Part shown: piece after piece, positions 2,365 to 36,821 of the stretch
Layout: every line of letters starts with the position of its first letter
Numbering within the stretch: the first letter of the stretch is position 1
Assembly: GCA_046484845.1 (NCBI GenBank)
Contig: JAWOIB010000068.1
Location: 1 to 37,116 of the forward strand
From: a bacterium
GTDB taxonomy: Bacteria; Hydrothermota; Tepidihabitantia; Tepidihabitantales; Tepidihabitantaceae
Reading direction: 5' to 3'
DNA length: 37,116 nucleotides
Program-made: the position numbers and the translations under genes
The notes under the pieces: generated by a model
What the model saw: the letters and a program-made list of their open reading frames with translations, nothing else
What the model was told of the DNA's origin: nothing
Databases searched by the model: none

Positions 2365-4278
2365 ATGCCTGCTGAACCGGTCGTTCACGGCCCGACGCTG
2401 CTTTCCGAACTCGACACCTGGCTGTTCCGCCAGGGCGCTCACTGCCAGCTCGCCGACCTTCTCGGCGCGCACCCGCAGGTGGTTGACGGCCGGACAGGCA
2501 CCCTGTTCGCGGTCTGGGCGCCCTCCGCGGCCCGGGTCACGGTCATCGGCGATTTCAACGACTGGAACCCGGCGGCCTCGCCGCTCGCGGTGCGCTGGGA
2601 CTCGTCCGGCATCTGGGAGGGCTTCGTGCCCGGCGCCGGACCGGGAGTGCGCTACAAGTTCCGCATCGAGCCACGGGACGGCGGCCCGGCGCTGGAGAAG
2701 GCCGACCCGTTCGGGCTCCGTTTCGAACCCGCCCCGGGCAACGCCGCGATCGTTCACGCGCCGGCGCACGACTGGCAGGACGATGACTGGCTCGCCGCCC
2801 GGCTGGAAACAGACCCGCACCGCCGGCCCCTGGCCATCTACGAGCTCCACGCCGGTTCCTGGCGCCGGGGTCCGGGCAACCGGTTCCTCGGCTGGGACGA
2901 GCTCGCCGACGCGCTGATTCCCTACGTCCTCGACGCCGGGTTCACCCACGTCGAGCTCCTGCCGGTGATGGAGCACCCGTTCTACGGCTCCTGGGGCTAC
3001 CAGACAACCGGTTACTTCGCGCCCACCGGCCGGTACGGCACGCCGGACGAGTTCTGCGCTTTCGTGGACCGGCTCCATCGGGCCGGCATCGGGGTCATCC
3101 TCGACTGGTCGCCCGCCCATTTCCCGGACGACCCACACGGCCTCGCCCGGTTCGACGGCACCTGCCTGTACGAACATGAGGACCCGCGCCGGGGCCGACA
3201 CCCGGACTGGCACACCTGCATCTTCAACTACGGCCGCCCCGAGGTTGCCAGCTTCCTCGCTTCGAGCGCGCTCTTCTGGCTCGACCGCTGCCACGCCGAC
3301 GGCCTCAGGATTGACGCGGTCGCCTCGATGCTCTACCTCGACTACTCCCGGCCGGACGGCGAGTGGCTGGCCAACCCGTTCGGCGGCCGGGAGAACCTCG
3401 AGGCGATGGAGTTCCTGCGTCGGCTCAACTGCGCGGTCTACTCCCGCTGCCCGGGCGCGTTCACCGTCGCGGAGGAATCCACCGCCTGGCCGGGCGTGAC
3501 CCGGCCGGTCCACCTGGGCGGGCTTGGCTTCGGGTACAAGTGGAACATGGGCTGGATGCACGACACGCTCAGCTACTGCGGCCGGGACCCGGTCCACCGC
3601 CGCTGGCACCACAACGAATTGACCTTCGGCCTGACTTACGCCCACGGCGAGAACTACATCCTGCCCCTGTCCCATGACGAGGTCGTCCACGGCAAGCACA
3701 GCCTGCTCGAGCAGACGCCCGGCGACGACTGGCGGAAATTCGCCCAGCTCCGGCTCCTGCTCGGGTGGCAGTACTGCCACCCGGGAGCGAAACTGCTCTT
3801 CATGGGCGGCGAGTTCGGCCAGCGCCGGGAATGGGACCACGATTCACCGCTCGACTGGCAGCTGCTCGACGCGCCCGCGCACGCCGGGGTCAGTCGCTGG
3901 GTCGCGGACCTGAACCGGCTCTACCTCGGCCACCCGGCGCTTTCCACGCTCGACCGCGACTCGCAGGGCTTCCAGTGGGTCGTCGCCGCGGATTCCGCGC
4001 AGAGCGTGTTCGCGTTCCTGCGCCGGGGCGAAGGCGGCCGGGTCCTGCTCGCGGTCGCCAACTTCACACCGGTGCCCCGCGCCGGTTACCGGGTCGGGGT
4101 CCCGGTCGCCGGCCGCTGGCGGGAACTGCTCAACAGCGACGCGGCCGAGTACGGCGGTTCCGGGCTCGGCAACCTCGGCCGGGTCGCGGCCGGGCCGGAC
4201 GCCTGCCACGGTCACCCGCAATCGCTCGTGCTGACCCTGCCGCCGCTCGGGCTCGTCGTGCTGGAGCCGTCCGGATGA
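2365..4278 (+). CDS. glgB: 1,4-alpha-glucan branching enzyme (GH13)
   Basis: 637 aa. GH13 conserved regions: ILDWSPAHF, GLRIDAVASM, FTVAEEST, LPLSHDEVVHGK. N-terminal CBM48-like segment (FAVWAPSA..V.VIGDFNDWN). Confidence 0.95.
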   Translation: MPAEPVVHGPTLLSELDTWLFRQGAHCQLADLLGAHPQVVDGRTGTLFAVWAPSAARVTVIGDFNDWNPAASPLAVRWDSSGIWEGFVPGAGPGVRYKFRIEPRDGGPALEKADPFGLRFEPAPGNAAIVHAPAHDWQDDDWLAARLETDPHRRPLAIYELHAGSWRRGPGNRFLGWDELADALIPYVLDAGFTHVELLPVMEHPFYGSWGYQTTGYFAPTGRYGTPDEFCAFVDRLHRAGIGVILDWSPAHFPDDPHGLARFDGTCLYEHEDPRRGRHPDWHTCIFNYGRPEVASFLASSALFWLDRCHADGLRIDAVASMLYLDYSRPDGEWLANPFGGRENLEAMEFLRRLNCAVYSRCPGAFTVAEESTAWPGVTRPVHLGGLGFGYKWNMGWMHDTLSYCGRDPVHRRWHHNELTFGLTYAHGENYILPLSHDEVVHGKHSLLEQTPGDDWRKFAQLRLLLGWQYCHPGAKLLFMGGEFGQRREWDHDSPLDWQLLDAPAHAGVSRWVADLNRLYLGHPALSTLDRDSQGFQWVVAADSAQSVFAFLRRGEGGRVLLAVANFTPVPRAGYRVGVPVAGRWRELLNSDAAEYGGSGLGNLGRVAAGPDACHGHPQSLVLTLPPLGLVVLEPSG

Positions 4279-5642
4279 CCGCGCCCCGGGTCTGCATCCA
4301 CAGCCACTGCTACCAGCCGGACCGCACCAATCCCTGGACCGGGCAGGTGGACGAACAGCCCGCGGCCGCGCCCTGCCACGACTGGAACGAGCGCATCACC
4401 GCCGAATGCTACGCGCCCAACGCGCGGGCCGGCAACTACGCGCGCACCAGTTTCAACTTCGGCCCGACCCTGCTGGCCTGGCTCGAGCGGCACGCGCCCG
4501 ACAGCTACGCGCTGCTGCTTGAGGCGGACCGGACCGGCCAGGCCCGGTTCGGCGGCCACGGCCCGGCCATTGCCCAGGCCTGGGGTCACAGCATCCTGCC
4601 GCTTGACAATGACCGCGACCGCCGGACCCAGGTCCGCTGGGGCATCCGCGACTTCCGGCACCGCTTCGGCCGGGACCCGGAGGGCATCTGGCTGGCCGAG
4701 ACCGCGGCGGACATCCCGACGCTGGAGACACTGGCCGAAGCCGGCATCAGGTTCACCATCCTCGCCCCTCACCAGGCCGGGCACGGGCCGGGCGCGTACC
4801 GCTGTCCCCTGCCCTCGGGCCGGGAGCTGGCGCTCTTCACCTACGACGGGACCATCGCCAACGAACTCGCGTTCCGGGACCTGCTGGCTGACGCGGACCG
4901 GTTTGCCGACCGGCTGCTTGCTGCGCGGGGTGAGCTTGTGAGCGTCGCGACCGACGGCGAGACCTATGGTCACCACCACCGCTCCGGCGAGCAGACGCTC
5001 AGGCACTGCCTGGACCGGCTCGAGACGACCGGCACGCGGCTGACCGTCTACGGCGAGTACCTCGCCGCCTGCCCGCCCGAAACCCCGGCGACGCTGGTCG
5101 AGCGCAGTTCCTGGAGCTGCGTCCACGGCGTCGAGCGCTGGCGCGGCGACTGCGGCTGCTGTACCGGCCTGCACCCGGGCTGGCAGCAGGGCTGGCGCGC
5201 ACCGCTCCGGGCCGCGGTCGAATGGCTGCGCGACACGGTCGCGCCCGCATACGAGGAAGCGCTCGAACCGCTGGTAGCCGACCCGTGGGCCTTGCGCGAC
5301 GAGTACATCGAGGCGGTCCTCGACCCGCCCGCGCTGGCCGGCCTGCTCGACCGCCACGCCCGCCGGCCGCTCTCCGCACCCGACCGGGAACTCATCGCCG
5401 GCCTGCTCGAAATGCAGCGCTGGACGCTCCTGTCATTCACCAGTTGCGGCTGGTTCTTCGACGACATCTCGGAACCGGCCACCATCCAGGTCATGCGCTC
5501 CGCCGCGCGGGCGATGGAAATGTGCCTCCAGCACACGGGCATCCGGCTCGAAGAAGGATTCACCGACATCCTCCACAACGCCCGGAGCAACATCCCGGCG
5601 CTCGGCACCGGGGCGGATGTCTACAGGCAGGAAGGGACGTAG
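4275..5642 (+). CDS. GH57-family glycoside hydrolase with DUF3536-like C-terminal region
   Basis: CIHSHCYQPDRTNPW, HDWNERITAECYAPNA, FNFGPTLLAWLE, WLAETA (nucleophile Glu context), ATDGETYGHHH, then SSWSCVHGVERWRGDCGC. ATG 4275 overlaps the glgB stop (ATGA). The ORF-track extension back to 3765 lies out of frame inside glgB and is ignored. Confidence 0.85.
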   Translation: MTAPRVCIHSHCYQPDRTNPWTGQVDEQPAAAPCHDWNERITAECYAPNARAGNYARTSFNFGPTLLAWLERHAPDSYALLLEADRTGQARFGGHGPAIAQAWGHSILPLDNDRDRRTQVRWGIRDFRHRFGRDPEGIWLAETAADIPTLETLAEAGIRFTILAPHQAGHGPGAYRCPLPSGRELALFTYDGTIANELAFRDLLADADRFADRLLAARGELVSVATDGETYGHHHRSGEQTLRHCLDRLETTGTRLTVYGEYLAACPPETPATLVERSSWSCVHGVERWRGDCGCCTGLHPGWQQGWRAPLRAAVEWLRDTVAPAYEEALEPLVADPWALRDEYIEAVLDPPALAGLLDRHARRPLSAPDRELIAGLLEMQRWTLLSFTSCGWFFDDISEPATIQVMRSAARAMEMCLQHTGIRLEEGFTDILHNARSNIPALGTGADVYRQEGT

Positions 5643-5647
5643 CAGGG

Positions 5648-7171
5648 GTGAGGAAGAAAGGAGCAGGACGAGAAGGAAAGCACTCCTCACTTCCGGCCCT
5701 TGGCTTGAACTCCTCTTCTTCCCGTACCGCCGGTGTCCTGCTCCACGTCTCCAGCCTGCCCGGTCCGCACGGCATCGGCGATTTCGGACCCGCGGCGCAG
5801 GCGTTCGCCGACTGGCTGGCCGCGGCCGGATTCCGCTGGTGGCAGGTCCTGCCCCTGAACCCGACTGACCCATTCTACGGCAGTTCGCCCTACCGCAGCA
5901 TCTCCTCGAACGCGCTGAGCCCGCTTTTCATCAGCCCGGAACTGCTGGTCCGGGACCGCCTGCTCGCGCCGGGAGAGACCCGACCGCCCCGCTTCCCGTC
6001 GGCCCGGGCCGACTACCCCGGAGCCTCGCGCTGGAAGCGGGACCTGCTCGACCGGGCGGTCGGACGCGCGCTGCCGGACCCTGCGTTCCGCCGCTTCTGC
6101 GCTGCGGAATCCGGCTGGCTTGATGACTACGCGCTCTTCGCCGCGCTCAAACGCCGTTTTGGCGGCGTTGCCTGGACCGCCTGGCCTTCGCCCCAGCGCG
6201 ACCGGGAACCGGCCGCGCTGACCCGGGCCGCGGACGAACTCGGCTCAGAGGTCCGGCGGCACAGGTTCGTCCAGTTCCTGCTCGACCGGCAGTGGCGGGA
6301 ACTTCGTCGGCACTGCCACCGGCGCGGCATCCGCATCATCGGCGACCTGCCGATGTACCCGGACCACGACTCCGCGGACGTCTGGGCCAACCGCCACTAC
6401 TTCAAGCTCGACCGGCAGGGACTGCCCCGGTTCGCTGCCGGGGTCCCGCCCGACTACTTCTCGAGGACCGGCCAACTCTGGGGTAACCCGGTGTACGACT
6501 GGCGCGTGCTGGTGCGGGATGGCTTCGACTGGTGGTTCAACCGCTGTGCCCGGGCGCTCCGGCTGTTCGACGTGGTCCGGCTCGACCATTTCCGGGGACT
6601 GGTCGCGTACTGGCAGGTGCCGGCCGGGGAGAGGACCGCGGAACGCGGCCGCTGGGTGCGCGCGCCGGGTGCGAAACTGCTGGCCGCGCTGAATGTGGAA
6701 TTTCCGGATCTGCCCTTCATCGCCGAGGACCTCGGCCATATCACACCCGCGGTCGAGCGCGCCCGGTGCCGGGCCGGCCTGCCCGGGATGAAGGTAGCGG
6801 TGTTCGGTTTCGGCAGGCACCGGAGCCCGCACCGGCCGGACCTGGTGCCGGCTGACGCGGTGCTCTATTCATCAACCCACGACACCAACACGCTCCGGGG
6901 CTGGCTGGAAGAGGAAGCCGGGCCGGAAGAACGGCGGCGGGCAAATGAGCCAGACGCAGGGACGTTGCTCGAGGCCTGCCTTGCGTCGCCGGCCGGGTTG
7001 GTTATCTTCCCGGCCCAGGACCTGCTCGGGTTGGACGCCCGGGCGCGGATGAACACCCCGGGCACGACATCGGGCAACTGGCGCTGGCGACTGCCGGCAG
7101 GCGGTCTGACCGACGCCCTTGCCGCGGAACTGCGCCGTTCGCTGGCCGCCTCCGGCCGGGTCAGCTGTTGA
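5648..7171 (+). CDS. malQ: 4-alpha-glucanotransferase (amylomaltase, GH77)
   Basis: GVLLHVSSLPGPHGIGDFG, RLDHFRGL, FIAEDLGHIT, YSSTHDTNT. The start is uncertain: GTG 5648 (AGGAAGGGA upstream) or TTG 5705 (6 residues before the conserved RxxGxLLH). There is no in-frame ATG after the GH57 stop. Confidence 0.88.
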   Translation: MRKKGAGREGKHSSLPALGLNSSSSRTAGVLLHVSSLPGPHGIGDFGPAAQAFADWLAAAGFRWWQVLPLNPTDPFYGSSPYRSISSNALSPLFISPELLVRDRLLAPGETRPPRFPSARADYPGASRWKRDLLDRAVGRALPDPAFRRFCAAESGWLDDYALFAALKRRFGGVAWTAWPSPQRDREPAALTRAADELGSEVRRHRFVQFLLDRQWRELRRHCHRRGIRIIGDLPMYPDHDSADVWANRHYFKLDRQGLPRFAAGVPPDYFSRTGQLWGNPVYDWRVLVRDGFDWWFNRCARALRLFDVVRLDHFRGLVAYWQVPAGERTAERGRWVRAPGAKLLAALNVEFPDLPFIAEDLGHITPAVERARCRAGLPGMKVAVFGFGRHRSPHRPDLVPADAVLYSSTHDTNTLRGWLEEEAGPEERRRANEPDAGTLLEACLASPAGLVIFPAQDLLGLDARARMNTPGTTSGNWRWRLPAGGLTDALAAELRRSLAASGRVSC

Positions 7172-7198
7172 CGACCACCTTACCGGTAAGCACACGCT
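7105..7198. repeat. Left copy of a 94-bp imperfect direct repeat (the real malQ 3' end plus a relic of the peptidase 3' end)
   Basis: Aligns with 9485-9578 at an offset of 2380 nt. 87/94 identical by hand alignment, and the first 43 nt are identical. The minus frame still reads QRVLTGKVVVNS-stop. Confidence 0.9.
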
Positions 7199-7301
7199 GA
7201 CGGCAAGCCCCCCCTTGCCCTGTTGGCATCGCCAGTCTCAATGTGGGCATAAGTTGTTGCTGGACAATGCTTTGTGTGTATCGGTCATGTGGGTCCTTGG
7301 G

Positions 7302-7333
7302 TTGACAAGAGAGAGAGAGAGAGAGAGTATTAT
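7302..7333 (+). promoter_or_regulatory. Promoter-like TTGACA / TATTAT pair whose 20-nt spacer is entirely (AG)10
   Basis: TTGACA 7302-7307, (AG)10 7308-7327, TATTAT 7328-7333. SD AAAGGAG (7366-7372) and ATG 7379 follow. Confidence 0.45.
7308..7327. repeat. Dinucleotide microsatellite (AG)10
   Basis: Perfect agagagagagagagagagag. It is the only simple-sequence tract I found in the window. Confidence 0.97.
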
Positions 7334-7378
7334 TGGTCGCAATCGGGGAATGGGTCCTGATTGCGAAAGGAGTACGTG

Positions 7379-7720
7379 ATGATGCTCACGCCTGACCGAG
7401 GTCGCAGGACGCTGTCCAAGGCACTGCCTTGTGCCATCGCGTTACTGCTCCTGCTGATGCCGTTGGTTGCGAACGCTGCCACCATCACGATCTATGGCAA
7501 GGGTGGGGTTCAACTCATCCCGCCGGCTCTGTGTCCGAAGGAGAGCAGTTCAGCGTGTGCCACGATCGAGTTGGACACGGCCTCTCCGAACCCCAATGAG
7601 TGGCTGGTCTATCCCGTGGTCGGTTTCGAGGTGTACCGGGCGGTTCTGGACCCGATAGACCCCGAAATCACTGAGATGCAGGGCTCTGAGCTGGTCATTC
7701 ACAGTATGACACAGGAATGA
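7379..7720 (+). CDS. Small secreted hypothetical protein (113 aa)
   Basis: Signal peptide MMLTPDRGRRTLSKALPCAIALLLLLMPLVANA|AT. SD AAAGGAG sits 6 nt upstream of ATG 7379 (the ORF track starts at TTG 7361). The stop overlaps the next start (ATGA). I recognised no family. Confidence 0.6.
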   Translation: MMLTPDRGRRTLSKALPCAIALLLLLMPLVANAATITIYGKGGVQLIPPALCPKESSSACATIELDTASPNPNEWLVYPVVGFEVYRAVLDPIDPEITEMQGSELVIHSMTQE

Positions 7721-9489
7721 ACCCATCACCACCGGCGAGGAGCGGAAGGGCGTCTGTTCTTCTGCTCCTCGCCCTTGCAGCATTTCACCCTGTGGTCGGG
7801 CCGGGAGCGCGGGCGGAGCAGCTCCACCAACTGCTTCAGGTCGAAGGTAGCGCAGAGGAGACAGCTCGTTTCCTTGCCGACCTCGGTATCCCCTTCAAGT
7901 CGGATACCGTGTACGTGTTTGTCATCCCGCCGATGGTTGCGGCGAGGCTGGAGGGCGCGGTCAACCCTTTCATACGCCTCCTCCGCAAGACTGGAGTACA
8001 GGCGGATATCATGGTTCTGGCCGTGCACAACCGAAGACGCGCAGCCGAGAGATACCTGGAAAGAAGGAACTTTGCCGCTGACCACATCCGGGTCACGGAC
8101 GAACGGTTCCTGGAAGCATTCGTCCTCTCCGCAGGTTCCTTGCAGAGCCCGTTTGCCACCAAGTTCTGCGTTGAGAGCGGGGAGCTGATTTCGTCCTACT
8201 CTCTGCTCGGTGTTGTAGATTCGGCAACGGTTGCCCGGTTCGTTGCCGATTCCTCTCGACCCAGGGCACTGAGACCCGAGGCGAAAGATACGGTCATCCG
8301 AAAGACTGGCGGTGATCCGCTCCAACCCGCAAGACGGATGAGACTCCTCGACACGGACACGTCTCCATTGTCCACCGCTTACTACCTGAGCATCAACCCG
8401 TCCGGTTCTCGCCTCGCTCTGCGTGATGACCTGACGAATCACATCTTTGTCTTCGACCTTGCCACGGGTGAACTGGACAATGTCCTGTATCCCGATTCCA
8501 GCGAAGAGACGATGTTTGTCAGCGCCGAGGTTCCGGGAGCGGTGCTCTCCTGGCTGAAGAGAAACAACATCATCAACTCGATGTACTTCAGCCACGACTT
8601 CCTCGACGACTCCACGCTTACGGTCACGGCCTCGCTGCCAAGTGTCGAGATGGAAGTCAGCGGTACGGACACGAACTTCGGATATCGCAACGCGGCGGTC
8701 CTGGTAACGAAGCGTGTTCGGTCCAACAAGCCGGTGGCCTGTGCTCGCTTCACTCCTCTTCCCGATACCGTCAGCGGCGGCCGGGCGCACATTGATGCGC
8801 GTTTCGTGCGCGACGCCGGATTCATCTTCCTGCCCTTCGAAAAGGGCTGGCCGAAGACCGGGACACAGATGCTGGATGAGGACGTGCCCCCGGAGGATAA
8901 TCCCTTCTCAGGCGAGTTCTACGCGAGAGATGTGCACCAGTTTGCGGCCTACAACTACAAGGGCGAGTTCGCAGGCTTCTGGGGCAGGCTGAACGAGCGT
9001 TTCAGGAAGCTGAAGCTCGGTTACATTGCAGCCGGCGGTTTGGCCAGACGGTATGGAGACAAGTACTATCTGGCCGATGTCCATTTCTCGGGAAGAGTGT
9101 ATGTCCACAGTCAGGATGGCGCTCGGCAGGACTCGATCATCGTTTATGAAGAGCCGCCCATAGTGTTACCGGATACGGACCCGGCGAATGAGCCACTGCG
9201 CTATCTGCTGGATGCGGTCGAGATGAACTTCGGGATGATAGCCGTCGACCTTCTCATCGCCCGGAATCACTGCTTCGTCCTGCTGTTGGACCGAGGCCAA
9301 CCGGTCGTCTATCGTGCAGATGGAGCAGGTCATAACGGAGGTAAGTTCCCATTGCCGGCTCAACTGGATGGAAGTGACGTAAGACATCACCTGCTGCGCG
9401 ATACCCAGGCCGGCATTGTCGTCGTATCCCTGGCAGAGTCGGCAGACGAAACTTGGTACTGCGAGTACCTGATCCCCGACGGTTTCTGA
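7717..9489 (+). CDS. Secreted hypothetical protein (590 aa), beta-rich, possibly propeller-like
   Basis: N-terminal signal-like segment (RASVLLLLALAAFHPVVGPGARA). Blade-like segments such as YYLSINPSGSRLALRDDLTNHIFVFDLATGEL. No catalytic motif recognised. The stop codon (9487-9489) lies inside the right direct repeat. Confidence 0.65.
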   Translation: MNPSPPARSGRASVLLLLALAAFHPVVGPGARAEQLHQLLQVEGSAEETARFLADLGIPFKSDTVYVFVIPPMVAARLEGAVNPFIRLLRKTGVQADIMVLAVHNRRRAAERYLERRNFAADHIRVTDERFLEAFVLSAGSLQSPFATKFCVESGELISSYSLLGVVDSATVARFVADSSRPRALRPEAKDTVIRKTGGDPLQPARRMRLLDTDTSPLSTAYYLSINPSGSRLALRDDLTNHIFVFDLATGELDNVLYPDSSEETMFVSAEVPGAVLSWLKRNNIINSMYFSHDFLDDSTLTVTASLPSVEMEVSGTDTNFGYRNAAVLVTKRVRSNKPVACARFTPLPDTVSGGRAHIDARFVRDAGFIFLPFEKGWPKTGTQMLDEDVPPEDNPFSGEFYARDVHQFAAYNYKGEFAGFWGRLNERFRKLKLGYIAAGGLARRYGDKYYLADVHFSGRVYVHSQDGARQDSIIVYEEPPIVLPDTDPANEPLRYLLDAVEMNFGMIAVDLLIARNHCFVLLLDRGQPVVYRADGAGHNGGKFPLPAQLDGSDVRHHLLRDTQAGIVVVSLAESADETWYCEYLIPDGF

Positions 9490-9578
9490 CCGACGCCCTT
9501 GCCGCGGAACTGCGCCGTTCGCTGGCCACCGCGGGCCGGGTCAGCTGTTGACGACTACCTTACCGGTCAGCACCCGGT
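9485..9578. repeat. Right copy of the 94-bp direct repeat (the real peptidase 3' end plus a relic of the malQ 3' end)
   Basis: See 7105-7198. The plus frame still reads ALAAELRRSLATAGRVSC-stop, a relic of the malQ C-terminus. Confidence 0.9.
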
Positions 9579-11469
9579 CCCCAACCCGCAGCCGCAGCCA
9601 GTAGACTCCGGCCGCCAGCCGGCTGCCGTCCAGCCGGACCCGGTGCCGACCCGCAGGCTGCACCCCGGCCGCCAGCACCGCTACCCGGCGGCCCGCCGCG
9701 TCGTGCAGCTCGAGCGCCACCGGTCCGGCCAGTGACAGGTCGTACCGCACCCAGCCGGCCCCGCCCAGCGGGTTGGGCCGCGCGCCGTGCAGCGCCAACG
9801 CCGGCGGCGCCGGCTCACTGGCCAGCCCGGTCCCGGGCAGCACGTACACCGAGTCCTCGACCTTGTTGTCGGTCGGGTCGTCGTCGATGCCGAGCTCGGT
9901 CGAACAGCTGGTCGCGTGCCAGCCCTGCCCTGGCGCGGTCCAGGATGCGAACGCCACCGTGTCGGTCATCCCGCTCGGCACCGTCACCTGCCGCCGGTCC
10001 GAGTACCCGACCCCGATGCGGAACCGGACGTCGAAGGTCTCGTTCCGGTCTCCGGAGTTGCGGACGACCGCCCTGGGCACGACGACCGCGCCCGAATCCA
10101 CCGTGTCGCGCGGCGCGAGTATCGCCGATGCCCCGACGTTGTGCAGCGCCACCCGGGTCGTACAGTAACGGGCGTTGTTGGCCGGGTACTGGTCTCCGGC
10201 CAGCCGGGTCGAACAGGAAACCGCGTACGGGCCGGGTACGCCCGGTGCCATCCAGGGCGGGAAAACCAGCTCGTACTTGCTGCCGGGCGGCTGGCTGACA
10301 ACCCCGAGTGTCGAATCGTAGGTCGTGCCGATGCGCAGCCGGACAGTGTAACTCTCGGTCGTGGTACCGTAGTTCTGCACCGAACAGACCGGCGCCACTA
10401 ACAGCCCCCGCTCGACCAGCGGCAGCATCACCAGCGCCGCCACCCCGACATCCCGCACCGGGGCCGGGTTGTTCTTCACCCGAACCATCATACTGTCCGT
10501 CACCAGGTTGCCGGCCCGGTCCGATGCGGCCACGATTATCCAGTAGGGCCCGTCCGGTACCGCGGTCGTGTTCCAATGACCCAGCGAGTCCTGCGCCTGG
10601 ATGAGCGAGTCACCGTTGGTGTTGGTGAAGATGAAGTAGTAGCGTCGGTTGAGCGAGTCGTAATCGCACCGGGTCGGGCAGACCCCATCCTGCTTGTACA
10701 CCACCCGCGACTGCACGCGGGTGTACCCGTCGAGCGAGTCGGTGAACTCGAACCCGCGCGTCGGCGGCACGACGGTGTTGCCGACGCTGTCCCGGATGGT
10801 GAACATGATGCGGTGGACGTTGACCTTCCAGAGCCGGTGGTTGACGCGGTCCTCGAGCCGGCAGATCAGGTCCACCCGGCCGTACACGCTATCCTTGCCC
10901 TGGTAGTTCGAAGTGTTGTCGGTGCAGATCGCGAACCGCTGGTTGGGGTAGGCGTCGAGGAAGTTCGGCACAATCGAGTCGCCGTACGGTACGAGGTCCA
11001 ACAGCGGGTTGCGGAAGAAACCGCCGTAACTGGACCAAGGCTGGCCGGAGTTTCGGTTCCAGGAAAAATGATTGTGGTGGAAGTTCGCCACCGGCCAGTT
11101 GACAATCATCGCCAGCGTGTCGCCGACCCGCACCGTGTCGCCGACCTGCACCCGGATGGTCGTCGGGTCAACGTGGTAGTACATCAGCCCGTGGCAGAAC
11201 GCGGTCCCGGCCGAGTCCGCCACGGTCAACCCGTTGTACAGCGGGTTGGCGTTCGTCCATATCTGCTTCACGTACCCGGCCTTGATCGCCACGCAGGGCG
11301 CCATCGAGACGGTCATGATGTCTATCCCGTTGTGCAGGTACGGGCTGCCGCCATAGTCCTGGTAGTTGCCCCAGTAGTTGCCGACGTGGTGCGGCTGGTT
11401 GGTCGGAAAATGCGGCCAGGGCAGGCCGAAGGCGACAGTAGCAATACAGAGCAGCGCCAGGCCTCTCAT
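9541..11469 (-). CDS. M23-family metallopeptidase with CARDB/Ig-like repeats and a T9SS C-terminal sorting domain
   Basis: Signal peptide MRGLALLCIATVAFG. M23 motifs YLHNGIDI (HxxxD) and NFHHNHF (HxH). The C-terminus ...RVRLDGSRLAAGVYWLRLRVGDRVLTGKVVVNS is typical of Por/T9SS tails. ATG 11469 overlaps the upstream stop (ATGA). Confidence 0.8.
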   Translation of the reverse strand: MRGLALLCIATVAFGLPWPHFPTNQPHHVGNYWGNYQDYGGSPYLHNGIDIMTVSMAPCVAIKAGYVKQIWTNANPLYNGLTVADSAGTAFCHGLMYYHVDPTTIRVQVGDTVRVGDTLAMIVNWPVANFHHNHFSWNRNSGQPWSSYGGFFRNPLLDLVPYGDSIVPNFLDAYPNQRFAICTDNTSNYQGKDSVYGRVDLICRLEDRVNHRLWKVNVHRIMFTIRDSVGNTVVPPTRGFEFTDSLDGYTRVQSRVVYKQDGVCPTRCDYDSLNRRYYFIFTNTNGDSLIQAQDSLGHWNTTAVPDGPYWIIVAASDRAGNLVTDSMMVRVKNNPAPVRDVGVAALVMLPLVERGLLVAPVCSVQNYGTTTESYTVRLRIGTTYDSTLGVVSQPPGSKYELVFPPWMAPGVPGPYAVSCSTRLAGDQYPANNARYCTTRVALHNVGASAILAPRDTVDSGAVVVPRAVVRNSGDRNETFDVRFRIGVGYSDRRQVTVPSGMTDTVAFASWTAPGQGWHATSCSTELGIDDDPTDNKVEDSVYVLPGTGLASEPAPPALALHGARPNPLGGAGWVRYDLSLAGPVALELHDAAGRRVAVLAAGVQPAGRHRVRLDGSRLAAGVYWLRLRVGDRVLTGKVVVNS

Positions 11470-25989: not shown

Positions 25990-26547
25990 TCACAGCATCC
26001 CCTTCTCCCGGGCCGGCTCCAGCAGCCGGCGCAGGTTCTGCCGGGCCCGGAACAGCAGCGAATCCACCGCCCGGACCGAGCGGCCCAGCGCCCGGGCCGC
26101 TTCCTCGTAGCTCATCTCCTGGTACTCGACCATCACCAGCGCCGCCCGCTGGTCCGCCGGCAGTTGTCCAAGTGCCTCCCGCACCAGCGCGATGCGTCGC
26201 TCGCGGGCGTAACGCTCCTCCGGCTCCGACGATTCCGGCGCGGGCAGGCTCTCGGGCAGCTCGCAGGTCGGCCTACGCCGGGTCGCCCGGTTGATGCAGA
26301 GATTGGTCGCAATCCGGTACAGCCAGGTCTTGAAACTGGCATCCCCCCGGAAGCCGCTTAGTCCCTGCCAGGCCTTCACCAATGCCTGCTGGGTCATCTC
26401 CTCGGCGTCGGCCGGGTTGCCGCACATCCGGTACAGGTAGCCGAACAGCGGCCGCTGGTACCGCCGCACCAGCTCCTCGAACGCGGCCAGGTCACCTTCC
26501 CGGGCCGCGCGGGCGAGTTCAGACTCCTGCCCGGGAACGTCAGTCAA
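25990..26547 (-). CDS. ECF-type RNA polymerase sigma factor (module A)
   Basis: Region 2 FKTWLYRIATNLCINR. Region 4 LPADQRAALVMVEYQEMSYEEAARALGRSVRAVDSLLFRARQNLR. TTG 26547 overlaps the flavodoxin-like stop (TTGA). Confidence 0.9.
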   Translation of the reverse strand: MTDVPGQESELARAAREGDLAAFEELVRRYQRPLFGYLYRMCGNPADAEEMTQQALVKAWQGLSGFRGDASFKTWLYRIATNLCINRATRRRPTCELPESLPAPESSEPEERYARERRIALVREALGQLPADQRAALVMVEYQEMSYEEAARALGRSVRAVDSLLFRARQNLRRLLEPAREKGML

Positions 26548-36257: not shown

Positions 36258-36821
36258 TCACAACAACCCCTCTTCCCGGGCCGACGCCAGTTCCCGGCGC
36301 AATGCCAGCCGGCCGCGGTAAAGCAGGGCGTTCACCGACGACGACGTCTTCCCCAGCGCGCGGGCGATCTCCTCGTGGCTCATCTCCTCCCACACTGACA
36401 GCACCAGCGCCGACCGCTGGTCCGGGGGAAGCGCAGCGAGCGCGGCGTTGATGCGTTCGGATCGGGTCTGCCGGCGGTGACGCTCCTCCGGTTCGCAGGC
36501 GGCCGCGGCCGGGAGCGTATCGGGCAGCGGCTCCAGCGGCCGGGCCCGGGTCAGCCGGTTCACGCACAAGTTGTGGGCGATACGGAAGAGCCAGGTTCGG
36601 AAGCTCGCCGCGCCGCGGAACCCGACCAGCCCGCGCCAGGCGTGGATGAACGCCCGCTGGGCCAGCTCCTCGGCCTCGGCCGGGTTGCGGGTCATCCGCC
36701 AGAGATACCCGAACAGCCGGTCCTGGTGTCTCAGCACCAGCGCCTCGAAGGCCGGGAGGTCACCGGCCCGGGCCCGCTCAACCAGCGGTCGGTCGTCGTC
36801 CGGCTGTCCTGACATACTCAT
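36258..36821 (-). CDS. ECF-type RNA polymerase sigma factor (module B)
   Basis: FRTWLFRIAHNLCVNR and LPPDQRSALVLSVWEEMSHEEIARALGKTSSSVNALLYRGRLALR. 47/70 residues identical to sigma A across region 2 by hand alignment. Confidence 0.9.
   Translation of the reverse strand: MSMSGQPDDDRPLVERARAGDLPAFEALVLRHQDRLFGYLWRMTRNPAEAEELAQRAFIHAWRGLVGFRGAASFRTWLFRIAHNLCVNRLTRARPLEPLPDTLPAAAACEPEERHRRQTRSERINAALAALPPDQRSALVLSVWEEMSHEEIARALGKTSSSVNALLYRGRLALRRELASAREEGLL

Follow-up and report, generated by a model that had tools for sequence, protein, structure and literature searches.

A two-gene accessory cassette enclosed by a long target duplication, probably inserted by host recombination, at a convergent malQ/peptidase junction

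Introduction

How can a pair of foreign genes come to lie between two convergent genes with overlapping ends, damage neither of them and bring no dedicated mobility enzyme? The question is raised by contig JAWOIB010000068.1 (assembly GCA_046484845.1; Hydrothermota, Tepidihabitantaceae) from an uncultured bacterium of the candidate division WOR-3 type, the whole 37,116 nt of which were analysed here and are called the window. Between malQ, encoding a 4-alpha-glucanotransferase, and the gene for an M23-type peptidase with a C-terminal sorting domain of the type IX secretion system (T9SS) type lies a 2286-bp segment (7199-9484) enclosed by 94-bp direct repeats, an arrangement first described in an earlier note made from the sequence alone. 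We consider it probable that this segment is a non-autonomous two-gene accessory cassette which was inserted, with duplication of the target, by illegitimate or replicative recombination of the host. The locus offers a natural example of gene gain for which occupied and empty sites as well as several sibling strains are documented; what is new is an accessory cassette without a recombinase combined with unusually long target duplications.

Results and discussion

A duplicated gene junction encloses a segment of foreign composition

The segments 7105-7198 and 9485-9578 are direct repeats which align without gaps, match at 87 of 94 bases and are identical over repeat positions 1-43, just as the earlier note had reported; the copies differ at repeat positions 44, 47, 49, 72, 84, 90 and 93, and no other long repeat of >90% identity exists in the window. 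Each copy carries the ends of both neighbouring genes. The malQ gene (plus strand, 5222-7171; GH77, Pfam PF02446, E = 1e-151) is open from 5222 with the GH77 domain beginning near 5741, and its last 22 codons, which end in AELRRSLAASGRVSC and the stop codon, lie in the left copy. This copy thus holds the functional malQ tail (7105-7171) together with a minus-strand relic of the last 11 codons and stop of the peptidase gene (7161-7196). In the right copy it is the malQ tail that survives as a relic (9490-9540), whereas the last 11 codons and stop of the peptidase gene are the functional ones (9541-9576, minus strand); the 642-aa peptidase reading frame (9541-11469, minus strand) continues from this copy only. 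The peptidase matches Pfam Peptidase_M23, just under the cut-off, and FlgD_ig, and its homologues bear PF18962 (Por_Secre_tail). On the minus strand both copies read RVLTGKVVVNS followed by a stop codon, and the three mismatches inside this tail are all synonymous third-position differences (CTT/CTG, GTG/GTA, CGT/CGG). The stop codon of the larger gene of the insert (9487-9489), missed by the earlier note, also falls within the right copy. The end of the duplication may be fuzzy at positions 90 and 93, in which case its length is 89 rather than 94 nt. Secondary structure of the repeats, as a candidate recombination signal, was no different from that of shuffled sequences for the two window copies (z = -0.1 and -0.7).

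The enclosed segment differs from its surroundings in composition. Its GC content is 58.3% compared with 69.4% in the rest of the window, that is about 35/60 against 42/60, so that the drop noted earlier is real in direction and smaller than the 30-32 against 47 per 60 first given. The GC content at third codon positions (GC3) is 69-72% in the insert genes and 85-93% in 14 host genes. The tetranucleotide distance of the insert to the contig mean is 0.476, against 0.20 +/- 0.04 (maximum 0.37) for 65 host segments of equal size, making it an outlier and bearing out the suspicion of foreign composition.

The empty site and the joints in independent contigs

The nearest relatives of the peptidase are found in L006, an NCBI metagenome-assembled genome (71% identity), and L007, a JGI contig (76% over a fragment); loci fetched for comparison are labelled L throughout. 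Both share the GH13-GH57-GH77/peptidase-312aa neighbourhood with the window, and in both the convergent 3' ends of malQ and the peptidase gene overlap, by 17 nt in L006 and 14 nt in L007. In a BLASTN comparison of the window with L007, the blocks 2420-7190 and 9476-10620 overlap on one 93-nt stretch (L007 5305-5397), and in a four-way alignment both repeat copies likewise map onto a single stretch in L006 and L007. The 2286-bp segment is not present in either. We conclude from these alignments that L006 and L007 carry the empty site and that the window segment is a real insertion into the convergent malQ/peptidase junction, as the earlier note had proposed.

Logan contigs from at least seven other sequencing runs (among them SRR22541072, SRR22541074, SRR21460061, SRR31326373, SRR22541065 and SRR22541066), found via cluster members, reproduce the junctions at 98-99% identity; exact-sequence look-up of the window peptidase and of the larger insert protein gave no match. 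L033 runs from malQ through the whole left copy into the cassette, L030 and L031 begin at left-copy position 42 and run into the cassette, the further end of L030 lies at right-copy position 30, and L034-L036 reach from the peptidase gene to right-copy position 42. In L033, L030 and L031 the left copy has the same sequence as in the window. Right-copy positions 31-41 are uncovered in the sibling strains, and their two copies appear to be identical through position 71; with a repeat shared over 71 nt, a graph of k = 31 must break at positions 30 and 42, as seen. The link from the cassette through the right copy to the peptidase gene is the only one not spanned by an independent single contig. 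A mis-join of two strains, put forward earlier as a way in which the insertion could be refuted, is very unlikely judging from these independent contigs, which contain both junctions.

Close to the left copy, a low-complexity linker near the malQ C-terminus (6926-7007, the EEEAGPEERRRANEPDAG region) is a strain-level hotspot of insertions, deletions and single-base changes between the window and L033: the latter has about 48 additional bases and many substitutions there, and the adjoining repeat copy is the same in both strains.

Proposed mechanism

What the comparison establishes is one foreign segment, two novel joints and a single direct duplication of 89-94 bp of the target, by which the 3' end of malQ is preserved in the left copy and that of the peptidase gene in the right. 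Under the host-recombination reading, the cassette would have entered the overlapping tail-to-tail junction of malQ and the T9SS-sorted M23 peptidase gene, and both joints would have been made by host recombination or repair rather than by a site-specific enzyme. Two routes can be envisaged. Incoming DNA may have been joined by microhomology-mediated illegitimate recombination, as in natural transformation (PMC5361080), or a replicative template switch may have departed from the chromosome where the 94-bp stretch ends, used foreign DNA as its template and returned to the chromosome 94 bp further upstream. The duplication looks mechanistic rather than selected because it is longer than needed to save both genes, which overlap by a few codons only; selection would nevertheless be expected to remove insertions truncating either malQ or the peptidase gene at this junction. 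Once in place, the cassette could be excised by RecA recombination across the repeats, which would restore the junction and release a circle of 2.38 kb, and the long duplication would thus make the acquisition reversible by ordinary homologous recombination; the identity available to RecA is 43 nt here and, by inference, about 71 nt in the sibling strains. Later changes would comprise either decay of the peptidase-tail relic by the left joint or errors made when that joint was synthesised, plus a private cluster of three bases in the malQ-tail relic.

Several points weigh against this account. Host-mediated joining is reached by exclusion of the alternatives, and no joining step has been observed. 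The joints show weak and ambiguous microhomology (GACGG at the two ends of the cassette; CGGT/TCTGACC at the right joint). We know of no documentation of 60-94 bp staggered or template-switch duplications with foreign-DNA insertion as a routine outcome in bacteria. The empty sites of L006 and L007 could in principle be secondary, having arisen by repeat-mediated deletion. In the sibling strains, the 27-nt left (peptidase) relic has four changes and the 51-nt right (malQ) relic none (Fisher P = 0.012), an asymmetry (4/27 vs 0/51) which simple neutral decay, on the sequences compared, would not predict. Lastly, the position of the duplications described below, all of which straddle the stop codon of a T9SS cargo gene, hints at a process more specific than random illegitimate recombination, this being a post hoc observation on n = 3.

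What the differences between the copies say

In the window alone, the seven mismatches are confined to positions 44-94 (P = 0.011 under uniform placement). The right copy of the sibling strains has the left-type bases at positions 44, 47 and 49 and the right-type bases at 72, 84, 90 and 93, and the changes at 44, 47 and 49 are therefore private to the non-coding malQ relic of this strain. The mismatches common to all strains are 72, 84, 90 and 93 only, all within the last 23 of the 94 positions, by the left joint (P = 0.003). An argument on polarity from outgroups, which placed a single crossover between positions 44 and 47, was dropped because the 44/47/49 differences are private to the strain.

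The earlier note had taken the synonymous differences to suggest that the relic came from a diverged functional allele. This view is weakened by the private origin of three mismatches and by the confinement of the four common ones to 23 nt beside the left junction. Three of three mismatches being synonymous at the third position has P ~0.04 under random decay, and two of the four changes in the peptidase relic are GC to AT; the synonymous pattern in the peptidase tail would equally fit a relic decaying with an AT bias, or a junction synthesised in an error-prone manner. Three readings may account for the differences: one relic may have decayed faster and with an AT bias while gene conversion or constraint acted on the other; point errors may have arisen during synthesis of the left joint, by analogy with replicative joining of the break-induced replication (BIR) or microhomology-mediated BIR (MMBIR) type (PMC4352052); or the peptidase-tail relic may be of allelic origin.

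The last of these leads to a Campbell-type integration, in which a circle carrying the cassette and one copy of the junction, for instance an excision product from a sibling, recombined with the chromosome via RecA, so that the repeats are hybrid and the mismatches allelic. A single crossover of this kind yields precisely the observed order of repeat, insert and repeat, the repeats are of sufficient length for RecA, the three synonymous mismatches in the peptidase tail are those expected of two functional alleles, and L004 and L024, described below, show a cassette travelling with one repeat as a unit; the spread of the cassette between strains and its stacking in L004 would be explained as well. 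This is a model of spread, however, and not of origin, since the first repeat-cassette-repeat structure still requires two illegitimate joints. In addition, the malQ-tail mismatches are private to this strain, the four common mismatches cluster at one end rather than being spread as in a diverged allele, and the left copy is the same in all strains seen. As an account of the window we regard it as unlikely.

The right-copy stretch 9529-9545 (CCGCGGGCCGGGTCAGC) is, at 16 of 17 positions, the reverse complement of a malQ-internal stretch (6217-6233) located 3.3 kb upstream; the left copy matches at 14 of 17. The match, raised to this level by the private cluster of three bases, could reflect chance in GC-rich DNA or a templated multi-base change.

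Long target duplications recur at other loci

Local alignment of the upstream against the downstream flanks of cassette loci revealed two further target duplications besides the 94-nt repeat of the window. In L004 the last 58-67 nt of an LVIVD T9SS gene occur in three copies of 90-95% identity around two tandem cassettes, the interiors of which are only about 70% identical. In L010 a 60-nt repeat (93% identity) comprises a terminator hairpin and the last five codons of a T9SS-type tail, and among the duplicated targets this is the only one with a strong hairpin. Two other repeats were rejected as target duplications: the three 95-nt repeats of L012 are the promoter region of the tandem-arrayed cassette itself, and the 34-nt flanking repeat of L024 is part of a dispersed REP-like (repetitive extragenic palindromic) element which is present elsewhere in L004. 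About 12 other cassette loci gave no flanking repeat in the same alignment.

All three duplications straddle a T9SS-cargo stop codon, from -38 to +56 in the window, from -52 to +15 in L004 and from -13 to +47 in L010. T9SS genes make up about two of 30 genes in the window and three cases out of three are thus unexpected; at the loci lacking a duplication, the cassette is never bordered by a T9SS 3' end. No core sequence is common to the three duplications, their lengths are unequal (94, 58-67 and 60 nt) and they occur in either orientation to the cassette. Conserved cassette termini were likewise not found apart from a -35 box at the left end and, at the right end, the stop codon of the large open reading frame (ORF): nothing upstream of the -35 box aligns across loci, and the right joint falls inside this stop codon or 4 nt past it.

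L004 and L024 are two strains of one species. The second cassette and the downstream relic of the T9SS tail are 97.8% identical between them, as opposed to 89-92% for the flanks, and L024 does not have the T9SS gene from which its relic derives, which shows that a cassette with one repeat, once formed, can travel as a unit. Clusters of the REP-like element (GTCATTGCGAG...GCAATC motifs; L004 4429-4757, L024 5421-5520 and 7825-7965) flank the cassette region and coincide with the breakpoints of a 5.4-kb presence/absence difference comprising the LVIVD T9SS gene and the first cassette. In L010, two orphan tails of T9SS C-terminal sorting domains follow one another downstream of the cassette (4450-4700, minus strand), one of about 66 aa ending in RKVVLAE and one of about 15 aa ending in TGKLLVTR, each followed by a stop codon, and then comes an intact T9SS-type gene (4903-6219); the layout resembles that of C-terminal displacement arrays.

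Tests for a mobility system

The window repeats share with integrative elements the flanking direct repeats and the single copy at the empty site. Neither the insert nor any of the 26 ORFs tested from the window as a whole yielded a recombinase, integrase or transposase domain, the 26 being housekeeping genes, e.g. transketolase, glgB, FtsY, SMC and GatDE, and there are no terminal inverted repeats, the best local score between the insert ends being 8 compared with a shuffle maximum of 12; in both respects the earlier note is upheld. The cassette has no PHROGs match to phage genes, no PADLOC match to anti-phage defence families and no relative among 2.9 million viral contigs. As to integrons, there is no IntI in the window and no conserved or structured 3' element across loci (no attC covariance model was run), and the right joint lies at the ORF stop without spare 3' sequence for an attC site. 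That the repeats are the coding ends of two genes and differ completely between loci argues, at the level of sequence, against a dif-like site.

Parallels for an element mobilised in trans are the CIMEs (cis-mobilisable elements), which have lost their integrase, and the IMEX (integrative mobile elements exploiting Xer), which use the host XerCD. The repeats could accordingly be read as attL and attR of an integrase-less element moved by a tyrosine, serine or XerCD-type recombinase. Gene-restoring direct repeats at a 3' end are typical of integrase-borne islands, the tandem arrays of L004 with repeats between the units resemble accretion at att sites, and all three duplicated targets lie across the stop codon of a T9SS gene. 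The duplicated segments, however, have no common core, are of unequal length and present the cassette in both orientations to the T9SS gene; the cassette lacks conserved ends, its right joint lying within the ORF stop or 4 nt beyond it; flanking repeats are absent altogether from about 12 other loci; both copies are host-like, including 66 nt of malQ tail, so that an attP would have to copy this very host junction; and no recombinase gene occurs within 37 kb. An att-like duplication by a recombinase in trans, as suggested in the earlier note, is disfavoured by this absence of a common core, of equal lengths and of conserved termini, and we give such a recombinase little chance.

Age of the insertion

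Another possibility is that the cassette is ancestral at the junction, the empty sites of L006 and L007 representing secondary loss via the repeats and the low GC content a trait of the genes. Deletion between 94-bp repeats regenerates a perfect empty site, and the GC content of the cassette is below that of the flanks in 14 of 14 loci compared, over a range of host GC from 30% to 69%; GC3 is clearly lower in the cassettes of L001, L028 and L004, and not in those of L005 or L025. Low GC is thus partly a trait of the cassette family and alone not proof of recent arrival, which weakens it as a sign of recent transfer; here it is the empty sites which carry the argument for recent arrival. Against this, an ancestral presence requires a separate loss in each of two relatives, the cassette occurs at unrelated sites in other lineages (some sharing a uvrB/DUF362 context), and the GC3 gap of 20 points is large; moreover, the duplication still needs an insertion event, so that the date changes and the mechanism does not. 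We think this very improbable. A chimeric assembly of two strains or organisms through shared k-mers, conceivable in an evidently metagenomic contig with a 43-nt exact stretch able to confuse a de Bruijn graph, can be dismissed almost entirely given assemblies of other runs in which the left joint is found both together with malQ and by itself, the right joint is found as well, and the contigs break exactly at the repeat, and given the analogous structures in the unrelated assemblies L004 and L010.

Comparison with known systems

Amongst known systems, integrase-borne islands and CIMEs share with the window direct repeats tens of bases long, a reconstituted target 3' end and the possibility of precise excision, and with L004 the tandem arrays with a repeat between units. 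They differ from the present case in that here no integrase lies within 37 kb, the three targets have no att core, the ends are not conserved, both repeats consist of host sequence spanning two gene ends, and repeats are absent from most members of the family. The structure therefore resembles an integrase-borne islet at a gene 3' end and fails on the integrase and the conserved core by which such islets are defined.

Target duplications made by DDE transposases or casposases are short (2-15 bp) and of fixed length for each element. They too leave the target directly repeated on either side and a single copy at the empty site, whereas the duplications described here are 58-94 bp and variable, without terminal inverted repeats or a transposase, and enclose, in the window, 2.3 kb of protein-coding DNA. 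A transposon fails on the inverted repeats, the transposase and the short fixed-length duplication alike.

Homology-facilitated or double illegitimate recombination is closer, in that host functions integrate foreign DNA without mobility genes at joints of little or no homology. Documented events mostly delete or replace recipient DNA, however, and no anchor homology between cassette and host is visible here. To our knowledge a clean 94-bp duplication sparing two overlapping genes is not a usual outcome of illegitimate recombination. According to a passage in one paper on the integration of foreign DNA in natural transformation, recipient DNA may rearrange at the joint (PMC5361080, citing de Vries & Wackernagel 2002 and Prudhomme et al. 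2002). For fork stalling and template switching (FoSTeS)/MMBIR, another paper describes insertions which are flanked by a duplication and accompanied by point mutations close to the joints (PMC4352052, citing Carvalho et al. 2013). Here, too, a duplication of variable length flanks the insert and the mismatches cluster by one joint; FoSTeS/MMBIR is, however, described mainly in eukaryotic and human rearrangements within a single genome, whereas here the template would be foreign and the microhomology is unclear.

The displacement arrays of Rhs, CdiA and type VI secretion system (T6SS) effector-immunity modules (PMC5361080) likewise show orphan 3' gene ends beside newly arrived modules, as in L004 and L010. 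Their module, in contrast, carries a conserved anchor and replaces the 3' end, whereas the present cassette is devoid of a T9SS domain and the tail of the resident gene stays in place. By analogy, the process would work most like insertion-duplication by host recombination, with an aftermath like the orphan 3' ends of Rhs/T6SS displacement arrays.

A bolder suggestion, which we put forward as rather improbable, is that the cassette family is a recombinase-less mobile unit placed repeatedly across the stop codons of T9SS cargo genes, in either orientation and with variable duplications of 58-94 bp, by an insertion pathway as yet undescribed in bacteria. Candidates for such a pathway are a trans-acting enzyme reading a structural or transcriptional feature of these gene ends in place of a sequence and a hotspot of replicative template switching located there; homologous recombination would then account for the spread and stacking of the resulting repeat-cassette-repeat units. 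Should a larger survey confirm that such duplications recur and are associated with T9SS gene ends, this would indicate an unrecognised route of gene gain in candidate phyla of the Fibrobacteres-Chlorobi-Bacteroidetes (FCB) group.

Contents and distribution of the cassette

The cassette (plus strand) begins with a 103-nt leader (7199-7301) between the left repeat and a promoter-like element, containing a hairpin, GGCAAG-C7-CTTGCC; the fold of the leader is not exceptional, and it bears no likeness to the corresponding upstream regions of 12 other cassette loci. The promoter-like element (7302-7333) consists of TTGACA (7302-7307), an (AG)10 spacer (7308-7327), which is the sole run of (AG)5 or longer in the window, and TATTAT (7328-7333). 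More than 15 related loci, including L001 (7457), L009 (2933), L010 (2168), L013 (5572), L018 (1566) and L028 (1615), show the layout TTGACA-(AG)n-TATxxT, the spacer measuring 10-22 nt. Amongst near-identical strains the (AG) tract measures 20 nt in the window, 20 nt with one substitution in L031 and 14 nt in L030 and L033, both of which also carry a change of TTGACA to TTAACA; it is 20 nt in the second cassette of L004 and 14 nt in L024, at an overall identity of 97.8%. The spacer is a candidate for slipped-strand phase variation and the promoter is likely to be phase-variable. Promoters with a simple-sequence repeat between -35 and -10 vary in phase in Haemophilus hif and Neisseria porA/opc, and the cassette shares with them a dinucleotide tract as spacer which differs in length amongst near-identical strains (20 vs 14 nt). 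It differs in that its commonest spacer, 20 nt, is longer than the sigma-70 optimum, although sigma-70 may not be the promoter type of candidate division WOR-3.

Downstream lies a 5' untranslated region stem-loop with the Shine-Dalgarno sequence (7337-7372; arms 7337-7344 and 7359-7366, followed directly by AAGGAG at 7367-7372). RNAalifold on 13 loci gave nine pairs, six of them with compensatory changes (e.g. CGCAAT/ATTGCG, CGTGAC/GTCACG and CACCGC/GCGGTG), and the hairpin is possibly a translational or stability element. The small ORF (7382-7720; 112 aa, alternative ATG at 7379) has a hydrophobic N-terminus and two conserved Cys residues. A word-indexed homologue search with it matched only itself, its relatives being found by tblastn in the fetched loci, in most of which it stands straight upstream of the large ORF. 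The latter (7717-9489; 590 aa) overlaps the small ORF. The AlphaFold2 model of the 590-aa protein (pLDDT 82, pTM 0.82) looks like an N-terminal alpha/beta domain of thioredoxin-like appearance, without CxxC, joined to a C-terminal beta-propeller. Foldseek of the model against the PDB returned generic beta-propellers only, at TM ~0.3, amongst them NHLRC2 (thioredoxin-like plus NHL), and this structure comparison gave no function beyond the fold. Searches of both proteins against Pfam, NCBIfam, PADLOC, PHROGs and PDB sequences yielded nothing usable, and to the eye the hydrophobic N-termini of both look like signal peptides. With its likely phase-variable promoter and conserved leader hairpin, the cassette is a candidate for a variable cell-envelope function in WOR-3.

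The large ORF has 20 homologues of 43-58% identity in metagenome-assembled genomes, those named belonging to WOR-3, and an exhaustive profile search with it returned 263 representative clusters, almost all of about 580-600 aa, so that the cassette represents an uncharacterised family of some 260 representative clusters. The small ORF accompanies the large one, with the same promoter and hairpin layout, at about 20 fetched loci representing differing genomic sites; the neighbours vary, comprising uvrB/DUF362, glycosyltransferases, Fe-S oxidoreductases and assorted T9SS cargo genes. The cassette thus moves as a unit.

In L001 (4969-10831) and L015 (4376-9729), which belong to distant lineages, the cassette lies between uvrB and a DUF362/Fer4 gene in opposite relative orientation, and this location may be an older, vertically inherited one with an inversion. 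The promoter-plus-leader element also occurs upstream of unrelated genes: in L025 (5667-5737) it precedes a pair of 199 and 718 aa without detectable homology to the cassette proteins, and in L012 (7795-7887) it precedes a 186-aa ORF downstream of two tandem cassettes. A small regulon marked by this element and a portable regulatory module are both conceivable. The independent assemblies L025, L026 and L027, all from one WOR-3 species, share a breakpoint (position 1 of each contig) about 1.7 kb upstream of the cassette and inside a UspA1_rep/Peptidase_S74-type gene, which suggests a repeat or variable region. Elsewhere in the window, a 238-nt direct repeat of 72% identity with an adjoining 57-nt match (26204-26506 and 36472-36774, 10.3 kb apart) probably represents paralogous genes of the extracytoplasmic function (ECF) sigma/Metal_resist region at the right end of the window.

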